DNA of 64,000 nucleotides, from the NCBI GenBank assembly GCA_048887165.1, contig JBHLJZ010000009.1:693-64692 (forward strand). Reading direction: 5' to 3'. Source of the DNA: Candidatus Hodarchaeota archaeon (GTDB taxonomy: Archaea; Asgardarchaeota; Lokiarchaeia; Sigyniarchaeales; SOKP01). The position numbers and the translations under genes were made by a program. Position 1 is the stretch's first letter. The number at the start of each line of letters is the position of its first letter. This document shows, piece by piece, positions 40,549 to 57,572 of this stretch. Under the pieces are notes generated by a model, which saw only the letters and a program-made list of their open reading frames with translations, ran no database searches and was not told the origin of the DNA.

Positions 40549-41028
40549 GTGGCTAAAAAAAAAGTCGAACCTGAAGAAGAAGAAGATATTGATGATTTTG
40601 AAGATGATTCATTTGAAGATATCGAAAGTCATTATCCTAACCTTGAAGGAAAGAAAGTTTCAGAAATGAAAAGTATCGATGGTATTGAAGAAGAAATAGA
40701 AGAAGAAGAAGAATTTGAATTAGAACCTGAAGTTGAATTTCCAGAATACAAACATCTTGGGATAGAGATAAAGAAAGGTCTTAATGAAAATGATTATAAA
40801 GTAATAATTAAAGGACAATCTCATGGATTCTGCAATAGCTATGTCAAACATCTATTAAAGGTCGAGGGTATTATTATTTCATCCTATAAAATAACAAAGA
40901 TTGAACCTCCAGAAATATTTGTTCGAATTGAGAATGGTTATAAAATAAAAGATGTGTTATATAAGGGAATAGAAACTCTTAGAAGTGAAGTAGCTGAAGT
41001 TCAAGGAATATTCAAAAAACTTATGTAA
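40549..41028 (+). CDS. rpoL: RNA polymerase subunit L (Rpo11/Rpb11-like) with a ~70-aa acidic N-terminal extension
   Basis: The C-terminal 90 aa (EIKKGLNENDYKVIIKGQSHGFCNSYVKHLL...VRIENGYKIKDVLYKGIETLRSE) are collinear with archaeal RpoL as I recall it (EIEGEDHTLGN...KAIETVR). csl4-rpoL linkage is typical of archaea. GTG start. Confidence 0.65.
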   Translation: MAKKKVEPEEEEDIDDFEDDSFEDIESHYPNLEGKKVSEMKSIDGIEEEIEEEEEFELEPEVEFPEYKHLGIEIKKGLNENDYKVIIKGQSHGFCNSYVKHLLKVEGIIISSYKITKIEPPEIFVRIENGYKIKDVLYKGIETLRSEVAEVQGIFKKLM

Positions 41029-41082
41029 CTCCTATTTTGAACTATTTTTATGAAAACTTTATAAGAGCTAGTTATTCAACTA

Positions 41083-41535
41083 GTGTTAATGCCTTATGAG
41101 TTTTTATTAACAGATATAAATCAAAACCTAACGGAAAAAGCAATAGGAGCCGATAAAGGTTTAGCAAAAATTGGGGATAGCATCGTAAATTTGACTTATT
41201 CAGTTGCTAAATCTATTTATCTAACGAATAATAATTTAAATAGCAGAATTATAAGAACAGGGATGAAAGTAAGTAAAAAAATATTAGCAGAAGCTTTGAA
41301 AGAAGCTAACATGAAAATTTATGCAAAAACTAGAGCTGATTCGCATGATTTAGCAGATACGGTGGAAGCTTTAATCGCTTATATTTGGTTATCTGAAAAA
41401 ATGTCCACTAAGGAGATTATAGACTTTCTTGCTAATAATCTATCAGGTGATTTAAATAATAGAGTCGAGGAAGTCAATTCTGCCAGATCAGCATTTACAA
41501 GACTTTTAAAATTGATAAATAAAATTATACAATAA
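41083..41535 (+). CDS. RNase III-domain-like protein (Mini-III-like, single domain)
   Basis: GLAKIGDSIVNLTY resembles the RNase III signature (ERLEFLGD). HDLADTVEALIAYIW resembles the second catalytic block (aDxxEAliGAiy). 150 aa, no dsRBD. Confidence 0.5.
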   Translation: MLMPYEFLLTDINQNLTEKAIGADKGLAKIGDSIVNLTYSVAKSIYLTNNNLNSRIIRTGMKVSKKILAEALKEANMKIYAKTRADSHDLADTVEALIAYIWLSEKMSTKEIIDFLANNLSGDLNNRVEEVNSARSAFTRLLKLINKIIQ

Positions 41536-41542
41536 ATAAATT

Positions 41543-42103
41543 ATGAAAGTGGCTCCAATAAATATTGGATTTGATGACGCTAAATTCGAATTTAAATCAA
41601 CATATAACACTACTAGTTTAATAGGTGTTATTTGTCAAGGTATCAGAATGGTAGATTTCATAAGATCAGATATCACTATTGATGGGGATGATGCTACAGA
41701 TGCACTTATCTCTATTGTAAAGCAAAAAGAAAAACATATACAATATATTTTTACTGATTCTATTACATTCGCTGGATTCAACATCATTGATTTAGAAAAA
41801 ATCTTTAACCAAACAGGTAAACCGATTATTGCGATTACAGAAAAACTTGTCGATCTTGATGCAGTTAAAATTGCTTTAATCAAAAATTTTCCAGAAGATT
41901 TTAAAATGAAGTTTAATCACATTTTGAATGCGGGTTATTTATATGAAACTCAACTTGAAACTGCAGGCGGTTTTTCAAAAATTTTTTATCATTGTGTAGG
42001 AATAAAATCTGATAAAGTACAACCATTATTAGAAAAAGTCTGTGTTGATTCAAAACTTCCAGAATCTGTTCGGCTTGCTCATGTAATAGGGAAAGCTATT
42101 TAA
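41543..42103 (+). CDS. DUF99/UPF0215 family protein (endonuclease V-like fold)
   Basis: IGFDDAKF, LIGVICQG..MVDFIRSDITIDGDDATDAL and FAGFNIIDLEKIFNQTGKPIIAI match the DUF99 pattern. 7 nt after the previous stop. Confidence 0.7.
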   Translation: MKVAPINIGFDDAKFEFKSTYNTTSLIGVICQGIRMVDFIRSDITIDGDDATDALISIVKQKEKHIQYIFTDSITFAGFNIIDLEKIFNQTGKPIIAITEKLVDLDAVKIALIKNFPEDFKMKFNHILNAGYLYETQLETAGGFSKIFYHCVGIKSDKVQPLLEKVCVDSKLPESVRLAHVIGKAI

Positions 42104-42110
42104 TTTTCTT

Positions 42111-42542
42111 TTAAAATGTAGCAATCTCGTATTCTAAAATCTCCTTCATTCTTTCACGCAGTTCAGTTCTTATTGCGGACATTCCATATGTTTTTAATCC
42201 GCCAAGCCTTTTCTGCACTTCTTGAGCACTTAAAGCTCCAGGTAAATCTTGCTTGTTAGCGATAGCGATTATTTTAGTACCTAAACTGCGTTCAAACCTA
42301 TCATAAATTTCTTTTGTTCTTTTCACATTCTCTTCTGTTGAATCACAGACTAAAACAGCTAAACCAGCACCTCTTAGGAAATCTTGCCACATAAACTTAA
42401 ACCTTCTTTGACCAGCGAAATCCCAGATCGAACATTTCTTCCCATTTAACAGTGAATCTTCTACTTCTAACCCAACTGTAGGAATCCGTTCTTTTGAGAC
42501 GTCTCTCCCTTGTAATAAAGATAATAATGATGTTTTCCCCAC
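42111..42542 (-). CDS. Ras-superfamily small GTPase (true start uncertain; the P-loop begins upstream of the GTG at 42542)
   Basis: G2 PTVG, G3 WDFAGQ, G4 NKQD and SA. The frame stays open to 42593 and encodes KQKICLVGDTGV before the GKTSLL of the called start. Confidence 0.75.
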   Translation of the reverse strand: MGKTSLLSLLQGRDVSKERIPTVGLEVEDSLLNGKKCSIWDFAGQRRFKFMWQDFLRGAGLAVLVCDSTEENVKRTKEIYDRFERSLGTKIIAIANKQDLPGALSAQEVQKRLGGLKTYGMSAIRTELRERMKEILEYEIATF

Positions 42543-42827
42543 TCCAGTATCCCCTACAAGGCAAATCTTCTGTTTTGTTGTAAAAACTTTATATCAACCC
42601 TTTCTAATGCAACATTATGTTAATTAGAAAAGGCAAGAAATTGTTCAAAAATTAAAATAATATTGACATATCATGCGAATTTTATAATATAAATTCTATA
42701 TTATCAATTCAATAATGAGAAAGGTGTTGGATTTTTGAAAATATCCTCCTATTTATCTTTTTTATATTTACATAACATGAGATTTTAAATAAAAAGTAGA
42801 TTAAGGTAAGATTGAAAATAATTATCA

Positions 42828-43241
42828 GTGAATATTATGAATTTTTTACTTGATTTTATTGTTTCTAAAGAAGGTGGTAAAGTAATTTATAGCACTGATT
42901 CTAAATTAGATATTGTTAAGGATGTTCTTCTTTTTGGAGGTTTTTTAGAAGCTATAAATAATTGTTATAATCATGCGCTTATAGATGATTTGAAAAAGAT
43001 TGAAGGATGCCATTATCGAATATCATTTATGGTAAAAAAAGACTTTCAATTTATTGGTTTATCTTCTATAGAAACAGATCCCATATTCGTAAAAATGGAA
43101 TTTGAATATTACGCACACAAATTCACTAAACTTTTTCAAAATAAATTATCTAATATTTCTGATAATGATGTTCGTATATTCAGAAAATTTAATAAAGAAA
43201 TTCTGAATAAAAAAGCTATAGAACCATATGTTACGAGTTAA
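42828..43241 (+). CDS. Small longin/roadblock-like domain protein (putative GTPase regulator)
   Basis: 137 aa. The beta-beta-alpha-beta-beta-beta-alpha pattern is inferred from the sequence (FLLDFIVSKEGGKVIYS / LLFGGFLEAINN / CHYRISFMVKKDFQFIGLS / FVKMEFEYYAHKF), which resembles sigma-adaptin/longin proteins. Confidence 0.4.
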   Translation: MNIMNFLLDFIVSKEGGKVIYSTDSKLDIVKDVLLFGGFLEAINNCYNHALIDDLKKIEGCHYRISFMVKKDFQFIGLSSIETDPIFVKMEFEYYAHKFTKLFQNKLSNISDNDVRIFRKFNKEILNKKAIEPYVTS

Positions 43242-43335
43242 GATAAAATTTTTGATTATATTCTAATTCGTTTTAAAAAAATAATAGATTTGTAAAAAAA
43301 GATAATTTAATAAAAAAAAAGCAAAATTCTTTTCA

Positions 43336-44637
43336 TTAATCTCCTGTTTCTAGATCCTTAACTATTCCTACAGCTACAGTTCTGCCCATATCTCTTATAG
43401 CAAATCTCCCCATTTCAGCAAAATTTTCATATTTCTCGATGCAGATTTTCTTGATAGGCTGTAATTTGATTATTGCTGATTCATTCCTTTTGATAAATTT
43501 AGGAGAATCTTCAATAACTGCTCCTGTTTTTTGATCTAATTTTTTATTTAGTTCAGTAAATTTTGCTGCTATTTGTGCTGTATGAGCATGAATAACAGGA
43601 GTATATCCTTGAGCAATAGCAGTAGGGTGCCAAATAACAATAATCTGCCCCGTCCAATTGCCGCTTGGATTGACTACAGTTGGTACATTATTTGGATGTC
43701 CTAAACAATCTCCACGACCGACATCCTTCATTTCAAGACCTCTAATACTGAATCCTACGTTATCTCCTGGTTCTGCTTGAGGAATCTCTTCATGGTGCAT
43801 TTCGATACTGCGAATTTCTCCTTTGAACCCAGTTGGCATTATAACAATTTTATCTCCCTTTTTAAGAACTCCTGTTTCAACCCTTCCAACAGGAACAACA
43901 CCAGTACCTTTAATTCTATAAGCATCTTGAATAGGCAGACGTAAAGGTTTATCAGTAGGTTTTGGAGGAATTTCGAATTTATCAATAGCATCAATTAAAG
44001 ATGGTCCTTTATACCATGGCATTTTATCGCTAGCTTCAGTTAAATTATCTCCAGTCATACCACTCGTAGGTACAAATTCTATATTCTTAACATTATATCC
44101 TATTTGCTTAAGAAGATTGGATACAGATTCTTTACATTCATTAAATCTATCTTCGCTATAGTCATAATTATCTGCTTTATTTATAGCAACACAGATTTGT
44201 TTTACGCCTAAAGTTTGAGCTAAATAAGCGTGTTCTCGAGTTTGACCATTTGCTGCAACTCCAACTTCCATTTCGCCTTTCTTACCAGAAACGACTAAAA
44301 TTGCAGCATCTGCTTGTGAAGCACCTGTGATCATATTTTTTACGAAGTCAGCATGACCAGGAGCATCTATTATTGTGAAATATTTCGATTTAGTCTCAAA
44401 TTTTCTAAATGCGAGATCAATCGTGATTCCACGCTGTCGTTCTTCCTTCAATCTATCAAATACATAAGCGTAAGACCAGGAAGGACGATCGTATTCTTTA
44501 GCAATTTTTTCTAATTCTCTTGCTTCTCTATCTGAAATAGCACCAGTTTTGATGAGTAAAGCGCCCATCATGGTAGACTTACCGTGATCTATGTGCCCGA
44601 TTATTACCAAATTCAAATGAGGTTTATCTGTTGGCAT
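43336..44637 (-). CDS. tuf: Translation elongation factor 1-alpha
   Basis: GHIDHGKST, DAPGH, NKAD, 433 aa. Confidence 0.95.
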   Translation of the reverse strand: MPTDKPHLNLVIIGHIDHGKSTMMGALLIKTGAISDREARELEKIAKEYDRPSWSYAYVFDRLKEERQRGITIDLAFRKFETKSKYFTIIDAPGHADFVKNMITGASQADAAILVVSGKKGEMEVGVAANGQTREHAYLAQTLGVKQICVAINKADNYDYSEDRFNECKESVSNLLKQIGYNVKNIEFVPTSGMTGDNLTEASDKMPWYKGPSLIDAIDKFEIPPKPTDKPLRLPIQDAYRIKGTGVVPVGRVETGVLKKGDKIVIMPTGFKGEIRSIEMHHEEIPQAEPGDNVGFSIRGLEMKDVGRGDCLGHPNNVPTVVNPSGNWTGQIIVIWHPTAIAQGYTPVIHAHTAQIAAKFTELNKKLDQKTGAVIEDSPKFIKRNESAIIKLQPIKKICIEKYENFAEMGRFAIRDMGRTVAVGIVKDLETGD

Positions 44638-55586: not shown

Positions 55587-57572
55587 TTAATTTTGTTCTT
55601 TAAAAGAGAATGCTCTCAATTCTGATTTAATTAAGAGCTTTATTATAGAATTTAATTTTATCATGTCTGAATTTAAAATACAATTAAATACAATGCCTCC
55701 ATCAAGAATATTCTGAAATCTTTTAAATAATCTAACTTTCTTTTCTACTGATAGATTTGCGTCATTTCTTACAATTTCCATGCAATACTTTGTAGGATCT
55801 TTTGATAAATTGGTATTATTAAAATAAATTGAATCAGACAAATAGCTATCTTTATGTGGTTGGCAAAATACAAATTTTTCTTGTTCATTTTCATTTTTTT
55901 CGTTAATAGAATCCTTTAATAAAGTTAAAATTTCCAGACCAAAAGTTTCACTTGATTCAATTCTATCTAGCTCAATTCCACAATGATATTTTATCGCTTG
56001 ATTTAAACCAAAAAAACTTATTGCTTTCATAGAAGTATTAGTCCATTCACTATTTTCTTTATTAAAAAATTCGGAAACCAGAAAATTCCAATCATATATT
56101 GATTTTAATTTTTTACGTGTTAGTTTTTTTTTAATTTCAAAAAGTTTGAATACAGATTTTAACTTTTCAAGTAGAAGATCATAAAAAAGAGTATCATTCT
56201 GTTTTGATTGGAGAGCAATTGCATGTAAATTAATTAAAATCTTATCTAAAATTATTTGATTATTATGAGAACCATCTTTTTCATGCAATACAGGGTTAAT
56301 AATCGTTGAATTTAAGAGAAATGAATTATTATTCCTATAAAATACTAGATCATCGAATAATGAATAAAATTCAATTTCATTCTGAAAAACCTCATTCTTC
56401 AAAAATGAATAGTCAAATAATAGAGATGGATTTTTCAGATTTTTATATAACTTATCATTAGAGTTAAAAAAGTTTAAAAATTGCTTGTTATTCTCAACTT
56501 TGAAAGATTTTGGGTTATTAATTTCGTTATATGTAAATTCTAAAGTTAAATGAGACTTATCATCATAATAACGGTTATTAAGACTGAATATCTGTGGTAT
56601 TAAGACTCTCTCAATAGGAGATTTATTATTAATAATTTGAAAAAGTGAAAGAAAATCTCCATTAAAATTCCCTAATAAGATATCCTCGGAGAAGTATGGA
56701 TTAAATCTGCTTAAAATTTCAAAAAATTTAAGGATTATATCATTTAAATCTAGAACGTTATCAATTTTATTCACATTGAGTGAATACGTTTTTGAAATGA
56801 AATCTAATATTGAACTACAACTAAGATAAAAACCCAAAGGTCTTAAACTCCAATAATTTAAATTTAGCAATGCTATCTCTCCGGATAAATATAAATCAGC
56901 TAAATCTTTAGGTAATAAGTTTAGTAATAAAAACTGTTCTGATGCATCAGATCCCAATTTATTTAGAAACAATTCTGGGTTTAAGTTTGAATTTTCGAAA
57001 TTTTTTAAGGCTTCATAAGGCGGAGTCCCTAAACGGGTTAATTTGTGTCTAATTTCTTCTAATCCATTTTCTAATAAAATTCCATTAATATATTCTCTCA
57101 TTAAAGGAGCTGTAAGATATTCTATATTCGTTTTCGAAAGTCTTTCTTCTACTTCATTGGCAATTTGTTTTGCGAGAAATCTCTCTACTTGCCCTTCCTT
57201 AATTAGATACTCTTCTATTTTTTTTACATTAAAAGGCTCTTTTGAGTATTTTGAAGTTCTAATCATTATTGTCCTATTTTGATCGTTAAGAATCTTTTCG
57301 ATTGATAATATATTTTTTAAGACTTGTTTTCCTAGAAAATTAAGAATATATCCATCTTCCGAAGAATCGATGTAATTGCTATTTTTTAAAGCTTTAAGAT
57401 GGAAAGAAAAATTTATTGAACCAGGATAATTACCTAATACTTCTTTTTGCAATGCTGAAAAAGATAGTGGTCTACGAACATTATTTAATTTCTTTAAAAT
57501 ATCTATTCTAACTCTTTGACCAAGTATTTTAAGATGTTTTTCTAAATTGTCTATATTTATGTCGGCATCCAC
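55587..57572 (-). CDS. wHTH + ATP-cone + degenerate class III RNR (NrdD)-like domain protein
   Basis: ArsR-like wHTH (RVRIDILKKL...SFSALQKEV...FHLKALKNSNYI). ATP-cone (IMIRTSKYSKEPFNVKKIEEYLIKEG...LTAPLMREYINGILLENG). LADLYLSGEIALLNLN occupies the position of the NrdD motif aH.sGdIHiHDl. No glycyl-radical C-terminus. Confidence 0.5.
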   Translation of the reverse strand: MDADINIDNLEKHLKILGQRVRIDILKKLNNVRRPLSFSALQKEVLGNYPGSINFSFHLKALKNSNYIDSSEDGYILNFLGKQVLKNILSIEKILNDQNRTIMIRTSKYSKEPFNVKKIEEYLIKEGQVERFLAKQIANEVEERLSKTNIEYLTAPLMREYINGILLENGLEEIRHKLTRLGTPPYEALKNFENSNLNPELFLNKLGSDASEQFLLLNLLPKDLADLYLSGEIALLNLNYWSLRPLGFYLSCSSILDFISKTYSLNVNKIDNVLDLNDIILKFFEILSRFNPYFSEDILLGNFNGDFLSLFQIINNKSPIERVLIPQIFSLNNRYYDDKSHLTLEFTYNEINNPKSFKVENNKQFLNFFNSNDKLYKNLKNPSLLFDYSFLKNEVFQNEIEFYSLFDDLVFYRNNNSFLLNSTIINPVLHEKDGSHNNQIILDKILINLHAIALQSKQNDTLFYDLLLEKLKSVFKLFEIKKKLTRKKLKSIYDWNFLVSEFFNKENSEWTNTSMKAISFFGLNQAIKYHCGIELDRIESSETFGLEILTLLKDSINEKNENEQEKFVFCQPHKDSYLSDSIYFNNTNLSKDPTKYCMEIVRNDANLSVEKKVRLFKRFQNILDGGIVFNCILNSDMIKLNSIIKLLIKSELRAFSFKEQN

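Follow-up and report, generated by a model that had tools for sequence, protein, structure and literature searches.

LD1-type longin domains form the catalytic core of eukaryotic Rab exchange factors (GEFs). The described systems closest to the locus analysed here are the tri-longin Rab GEFs Mon1–Ccz1, Fuzzy–Inturned (CPLANE) and HPS1–HPS4 (BLOC-3), which have three tandem longin domains; the TRAPP core longins TRAPPC1/TRAPPC4 (Bet5/Trs23), which form a longin-dimer platform for a Rab; and the MglA/MglB system of Myxococcus and Thermus, in which a small GTPase and a roadblock GAP are encoded by a conserved, co-transcribed operon, mglBA. In Asgard archaea, longin–GTPase fusion proteins have been described (Tran et al. 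2024, PMC10933270; PMC11914678), and the reported content of a Loki-type genome is about 40 longin domains and about 40 Rab-like GTPases, which as a rule do not share operons (PMC10933270). In the cultured Loki strain MK-D1, operons that join small GTPase genes to roadblock, longin or TRAPPC3 genes are reported to be the exception (PMC10933270), and the regulators of Asgard Arf-like GTPases have been stated to be unknown (PMC11914678).

The window, a stretch of 64,000 nucleotides, belongs to contig C9 of a 4.1-Mb Asgard genome in 219 contigs (G000), and close protein homologues of the longin discussed below are labelled Promethearchaeota. An initial annotation had singled out two divergent genes in this window, encoding a Ras-like GTPase and a longin- or roadblock-like protein of 137 aa, as a candidate switch-regulator module. 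Here we describe the two genes and their relatives, and compare the pair with the systems above.

Gene layout and the start of the GTPase

Both genes are present where they had been annotated, in divergent orientation. The GTPase occupies 42111–42593 on the minus strand, an open frame of 160 codons recognized by its motifs and its Pfam and PDB profile matches. The longin gene lies on the plus strand at 42837–43241 and encodes 134 aa if read from ATG 42837, or 137 aa from GTG 42828. The ATG is the more likely start, given that four of five close homologues (84–90% identity) are 134 aa long and begin at an ATG. The existence of the pair is thus upheld, with two amendments: the left coordinate assigned to the GTPase did not hold (its frame runs to 42593), and 134 aa is the more likely length of its neighbour. 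Upstream of the GTPase and on the same strand lies the gene for EF1-alpha (EF1a; 43336–44637), so that the longin gene sits between the two. On the other side, the gene for Endonuclease dU/DUF99 (EndoDU; 41543–42103, plus strand), the last of a run of RpoL, RNaseIII-like and EndoDU genes, converges on the GTPase, with the two stop codons 7 bp apart. The longin gene (42837–43241) has a G+C content of 24%; that of the GTPase gene is 37%, and the window as a whole averages 29%.

The start of the GTPase is unusual. The position chosen by the ORF finder, GTG 42542, encodes a Val inside the P-loop GDTGVGKT (at about 42531–42554), which begins upstream of that codon. The frame remains open up to 42593 and is closed by an in-frame TGA at 42594–42596; from this stop to the P-loop glycine there is no in-frame ATG, GTG or TTG. 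The sequence that we analysed (P0002) comprises 158 aa, from the Val at 42587. Compared with the sister species, the first 15 codons ahead of the GTG differ by six synonymous changes and one non-synonymous change, and these codons are therefore translated. A frameshift or assembly error behind the missing start codon was rejected, as the identical layout recurs in three independent lineages. The start pattern points to non-canonical initiation rather than to a broken gene.

Gene starts also differ among the relatives. Twelve of 41 GTPase orthologues share the start-less layout (loci L028–L068) and the remainder mostly have TTG; across the alignment, the codon at the start position varies between TTG, GTG, GTT, GTC, ATT and TTT. 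One database entry (P0017, 151 aa) begins the GTPase at ATT 42564–42566, and another gene caller chose Met66.

An Arf-like GTPase core

The GTPase contains all five motifs of the Ras superfamily: G1 GDTGVGKT, G2 IPTVG, G3 WDFAGQ, G4 NKQD and G5 MSA. Its C terminus reads EYEIATF, with no lipidation box (CAAX or CC). The motifs PTVG, WDFAGQ and NKQD and the missing lipidation box had all been described correctly; the family name had not. Pfam returned Roc (7e-20), Arf (1.4e-17) and Ras (6.8e-15), and NCBIfam returned TIGR00231 (2.9e-16). A profile built from 20 orthologues (alignment A2) matched Arf or Arl proteins in all 60 listed PDB matches (1.7e-20 to 5e-16), with Arf6 at 1.7e-20 and Arf1 at 1e-19. 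The switch II/interswitch consensus of the orthologues, WDLGGQKRFKFMW, is Arf-like, as is NKQD, and the protein carries the Arf-type signatures PT.G, WD(L/F)(G/A)GQ..F..W and NKQD. NCBI names the orthologues 'ADP-ribosylation factor-like protein'.

An amphipathic N-terminal helix is given as the defining feature of the Arf family in the ArfR paper (bioRxiv 10.1101/2024.02.28.582541). This helix is absent from the window GTPase, for which the open frame leaves at most 13 residues ahead of the P-loop glycine, and the profile alignment to Arf starts only at Arf residue 13–18. The protein is thus best classified, from its sequence, as an Arf-like core that lacks the Arf helix, and not as Ras-like.

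A stand-alone longin, probably of the MON1/FUZ/HPS1 type

Searched on its own, the longin protein had no Pfam match at E ≤ 1 and no NCBIfam match, and phmmer against 1.84 billion representatives returned nine matches; the subfamily appears to be small and nearly confined to its own lineage. We assembled a family alignment (A1) of 27 homologues from databases, other species of the genus and the same genome. The resulting profile matched longin domain 1 of MON1 in the PDB (seven MON1 chains, E = 1.2e-4 to 5e-3). Pfam PF19036, Fuz_longin_1 ('First Longin domain of FUZ, MON1 and HPS1'), was matched by 21 of the 27 family members (best 1.2e-9), with the window protein itself below threshold, and five of the 27 also touched the SNARE-type Longin model PF13774.

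The AlphaFold2 model computed with alignment A1 (pLDDT 86.2, pTM 0.81) has the element order b-b-a-b-b-b-a-a(-a), which is the longin topology, with no helix before b1: strands at residues 6–10 and 16–19, a helix at 30–48, strands at 54–56, 60–67 and 70–77, and helices at 82–106 and 113–123. Foldseek ranked BLOC-3, Mon1–Ccz1, zeta-COP, TRAPP and MglB at the top. Full-length structural matches to longin proteins reached Z scores of 10.5–12.5, and the best VIA-align scores were 12.5 for TRAPPC4, 12.3 for BLOC-3 and 12.1 for Fuzzy, over 124–133 residues. The nearest ESM Atlas cluster is annotated as archaeal 'FUZ/MON1/HPS1 first Longin domain' (TM 0.82). The longin fold, originally assigned by eye, is therefore borne out by the model, its topology and the TRAPPC4 match, and can be refined: the window protein is predicted, from model and profile, to be a stand-alone LD1-type longin (MON1/FUZ/HPS1). 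The roadblock alternative fell away. Roadblock topology has a helix before the first strand (a-b-b-a-b-b-b), and the model opens with a strand at residue 6; roadblock chains such as MglB cover only residues 1–105 of it in VIA-align.

The dN/dS of the longin gene is 0.06–0.12 in comparisons with its two nearest relatives, and that of the GTPase gene is 0.05; both are real genes under strong purifying selection.

The GTPase is a core gene and the longin a local neighbour

The GTPase is a single-copy core gene. All 81 genomes that we sampled from the class contain a match to it at E ≤ 1e-25, as do 31 of 31 genomes of the genus (73–91% identity), and clear stand-alone orthologues of ~158 aa (54–91% identity) occur throughout the family. 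It converges with the RpoL gene, a single-domain RNaseIII-like gene and EndoDU throughout the family, including four further genera, and usually lies just downstream of EF1a on the same strand. Its association with RNA- and transcription-related genes is an old linkage, one with no obvious explanation. The convergence with RpoL, RNaseIII-like and EndoDU genes (40549–42593 in the window) is also seen in a second family, where the GTPase is 38–40% identical (L079, L082 and L083).

The longin gene does not share this history. Across 41 orthologous GTPase loci (39 of the genus, 4 of other genera), it adjoins the GTPase only in the window genome and in its sister species G042, whose GTPase and longin are 91% and 90% identical to those of the window. 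A third occurrence comes from a metagenome lineage (P0007/L069, 84% identity). At 16 loci of other genera there are no longin-family ORFs closer than ~3.5 kb to the GTPase, and members of the longin subfamily turned up in only 5 of 11 genera. The check proposed with the initial annotation, linkage of the two genes in at least some related genome, was thus passed narrowly, through one sister species and one metagenome lineage. The switch-regulator module itself did not fare as well: our searches of further genomes of the genus, and of the 16 loci of other genera, turned up no such pair.

The slot between EF1a and the GTPase (42594–43335 in the window; L030–L057) is variable. In many species of the genus it is empty, with EF1a ending 175–240 bp before the GTPase, and in other genomes of the genus it is filled with a gene for a membrane protein, an LRR protein, an ABC solute-binding protein or a zinc-ribbon protein.

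A spacer with two histories

The A/T-rich composition noted for the divergent spacer is correct (21% G+C). Its length is ~243–270 bp (243 bp from TGA to ATG) instead of 285 bp, and only part of the spacer has a common history. In a spacer alignment, the ~110 bp nearest the GTPase (42594–42700, minus strand) are conserved also in relatives that lack the longin gene, aligning with their orthologous loci, and the rest (42701–42836, plus strand) is specific to longin-carrying genomes. The GTPase has therefore retained the older sequence upstream of it, and the longin gene came in with upstream DNA of its own. The motif CCTTTTCTAATTAA at 42621–42634 on the minus strand, within the conserved upstream region of the GTPase, may be a TATA/BRE-like promoter element. 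The longin-side spacer is A/T-rich and has TATA-like runs at 42760–42769 and 42784–42796, and 42701–42836 is presumed to hold the longin gene's own promoter; all TATA-like elements were read by eye only. A search of 41900–43500 against Rfam at E ≤ 1 yielded no RNA family in the spacer.

Origin of the longin gene

In other species of the genus, the best longin homologues are 35–51% identical and none adjoins the GTPase orthologue; at the loci of the nearest homologues there is no adjacent GTPase, and a GTPase lies one gene away in 3 of 19. The closest homologues (L010, L013 and L014, and the tandem pairs L009 and L012) stand in the order 3-hydroxyacyl-CoA dehydrogenase (HADH), a 97-aa protein, longin, an FrhB-like gene and a Rab-like GTPase. 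The window longin and the L010 longin are reciprocal best hits, and the corresponding slot on contig C3 of the window genome contains no longin. We infer that relocation of the gene, or duplication followed by loss, would be the simplest reading.

The C3 slot (55900–56720) holds an acidic ORF of ~120 aa that starts with a long Glu run and has no similarity to the longin family; the Rab-like GTPase of this locus is at about 57.7–58.0 kb on C3. L009 (1003–1872) and L012 (999–1866) carry tandem paralogous longin copies separated by ~10 bp and 42–48% identical to the window longin, which recall the heterodimeric longin pairs of eukaryotic GEFs.

Chance adjacency and longin–GTPase fusions

The window genome encodes 83 ORFs with a small-GTPase domain and 29 with a longin-family domain, 26 of them unfused. 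A random ORF of at least 120 aa lies no more than 500 bp from a GTPase-domain ORF in 3.8% of cases. At this rate, 0.98 such pairs are expected among the 26 unfused longin ORFs; we observed two (P = 0.26), and adjacency of longin and GTPase genes is therefore at chance level. Within 3.5 kb, longin-family genes near GTPase genes were mildly enriched (7 observed, 3.0 expected, P = 0.023, uncorrected).

Three ORFs of this genome fuse longin and GTPase domains: C187:2954–3847 (L090), C66:2808–3731 (L091) and C7:4158–5057 (L093). In the C187 protein (298 aa), the N-terminal domain is homologous to the longin family of the window over 124 columns (hhalign 95.7%, E = 1e-8), and the Arf-type GTPase domain is 39% identical to the window GTPase and among its three closest paralogues. 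Because C187 fuses this longin family with a close paralogue of the GTPase, cooperation at the family level is real. We claim only this fusion as a member of the window's longin family. The N-terminal domains of the two closest GTPase paralogues, C6 and C10, look longin-like by eye; C6 was discarded as a longin fusion because hhalign against the family was not significant (probability 5%). In the ESM Atlas, a 376-member cluster of longin plus Arf/Roc/Ras proteins of 308 aa matches the longin model with a TM of 0.80. A complex prediction with two longin copies and the GTPase, each with its own alignment, scored 0.30 against a mark of 0.32, a value that speaks neither for nor against binding.

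The C7 fusion has the reverse order: its Arf domain (Pfam 2e-33) comes first, and the longin-family match behind it is weaker. On contig C192 (L092), a helical-repeat protein with a C-terminal longin-family domain (3–869) is followed 84 bp on, on the same strand, by a Rab-like GTPase (953–1540); judged from gene arrangement, this pair looks more operon-like than the divergent pair of the window.

Discussion

On balance, we favour with moderate confidence the reading that the window holds two real, selected genes standing back-to-back, whose juxtaposition is recent and probably incidental. The GTPase is a core, single-copy, stand-alone Arf-like switch of this Asgard (Promethearchaeota) lineage, set among information-processing neighbours. 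The longin gene would have moved into the variable EF1a–GTPase slot in the ancestor of a small species group, bringing upstream DNA along and coming to lie on the strand opposite to its new neighbours. Going by its family, the longin protein may form a homo- or heterodimeric platform, which might bind the switch face of one or more of the ~80 small GTPases of the genome and could work there in nucleotide exchange, as a scaffold for a GAP or as an anchor. The Arf-like neighbour would be one candidate client among many. Cooperation of these longins with Arf-like GTPases is well founded at the level of the family, and specificity for the window neighbour is not. Several observations count against an incidental juxtaposition: the pair has been kept across three lineages, at a dS of 0.7–1.0, with strong purifying selection on both genes; the C187 protein fuses the two families; longin-family genes are mildly enriched within 3.5 kb of GTPase genes; and the old and the new site of the longin gene are both near a small GTPase.

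The rival reading is a true functional pair, in which the longin protein would be the dedicated GEF- or GAP-type platform of the neighbouring GTPase, an unfused counterpart of the fusions, recently joined to it and co-regulated from the divergent spacer. Such a pair would fit the longin–GTPase fusions of the same genome, with C187 combining this longin family and a close GTPase paralogue, as well as the 376-member ESM Atlas cluster and the place of LD1-type longins at the catalytic core of eukaryotic Rab GEFs; the arrangement has also been retained over that dS range with a dN/dS of no more than 0.12 in both genes. However, the GTPase is found without this longin neighbour in every other genome searched, and therefore does not need the longin, whose subfamily extends to only 5 of 11 genera. 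Moreover, the older upstream region of the GTPase is still in place, the genes point away from each other and are not co-transcribed, and their adjacency is at chance level. We regard a functional pair as unlikely, and a dedicated switch-regulator module is not supported by the sequence comparisons.

In its most specific form, this reading makes the longin protein the exchange factor or GAP platform cognate to the conserved stand-alone Arf-like GTPase, together a naturally split Asgard longin–GTPase fusion, which we consider decidedly doubtful. If true, two small proteins (134 aa and about 155 aa) would make up a minimal system for asking whether one MON1/FUZ/HPS1-type longin domain is already enough to switch an Arf-type GTPase in the closest prokaryotic relatives of eukaryotes. 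We also think it improbable that the longin functions apart from small GTPases, whether as an adaptor, as a SNARE-like regulatory domain or as a module that binds small ligands or partners, in which case the GTPase neighbourhood would be meaningless. Longin and roadblock folds do occur in SNAREs, in the sigma and zeta subunits of coat adaptors and in SR-alpha, all among the structural matches, Asgard proteins fuse the same fold to TrmB, V4R, receiver and TPR modules, and 5 of the 27 family members touch the SNARE-type Longin model. The strongest sequence signal, however, leads to the MON1/FUZ/HPS1 LD1 family, in which the known proteins act as GTPase exchange factors, and the window genome itself encodes fusions of the longin family with GTPase domains.

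By the comparative evidence, the pair arose through a recent rearrangement instead of descending as an ancestral module, and so should not be cited as genomic evidence for a longin–GTPase switch. Regulators of Asgard small GTPases can seldom be traced from gene order (PMC10933270). The locus nonetheless offers two proteins suited to in vitro tests, a core Arf-like GTPase and a stand-alone longin of the LD1 type with a confident structural model. The fused paralogue C187 and the same-strand C192 pair are better starting points than the pair of the window.

Compared with known systems, the resemblance to MglA/MglB is that a small GTPase adjoins a small protein of the longin/roadblock superfamily (MglB Z 11–11.7). 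MglB, however, has roadblock topology with an N-terminal helix and aligns only to residues 1–105 of the longin model, and the conserved, co-oriented linkage of mglBA contrasts with a window pair that is divergent and not conserved. A TRAPP core longin is the top structural match of the window longin (2j3t_D, Z 12.5, 126 residues), which has no sequence-level signal to TRAPP (sedlin-type) families and no TRAPPC3/V4R partner nearby. The Asgard Arf-related GTPases (ArfR/AArf; bioRxiv 10.1101/2024.02.28.582541; PMC11914678) resemble the window GTPase in its Arf/Arl profile matches, Arf-type motifs and NCBI name, and differ from it by their defining N-terminal amphipathic helix.

With LD1 of the tri-longin Rab GEFs, the window longin shares fold and topology; its family profile matches MON1 LD1 (E = 1.2e-4), PF19036 is matched by 21 of 27 family members, and the structural Z scores are 12.3 for BLOC-3, 12.1 for Fuzzy and 10.6–11.3 for Mon1/Ccz1. 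Instead of three tandem domains, it is a single 134-aa domain that fills the whole model; there is no Ccz1-, Inturned- or HPS4-type partner gene beside it or in the window, and its sequence alone stays below Pfam thresholds. The Asgard fusions of longins with Arf-like or Rag-like GTPases (PMC10933270; PMC11914678) differ in that each domain has a gene of its own in the window. The two genes lie on opposite strands and adjoin only in a small species group, and the GTPase is the stand-alone member of its clade. Fusions and window pair are alike in that both domain families occur in the same phylum and that C187, in the window genome itself, joins them in one protein.
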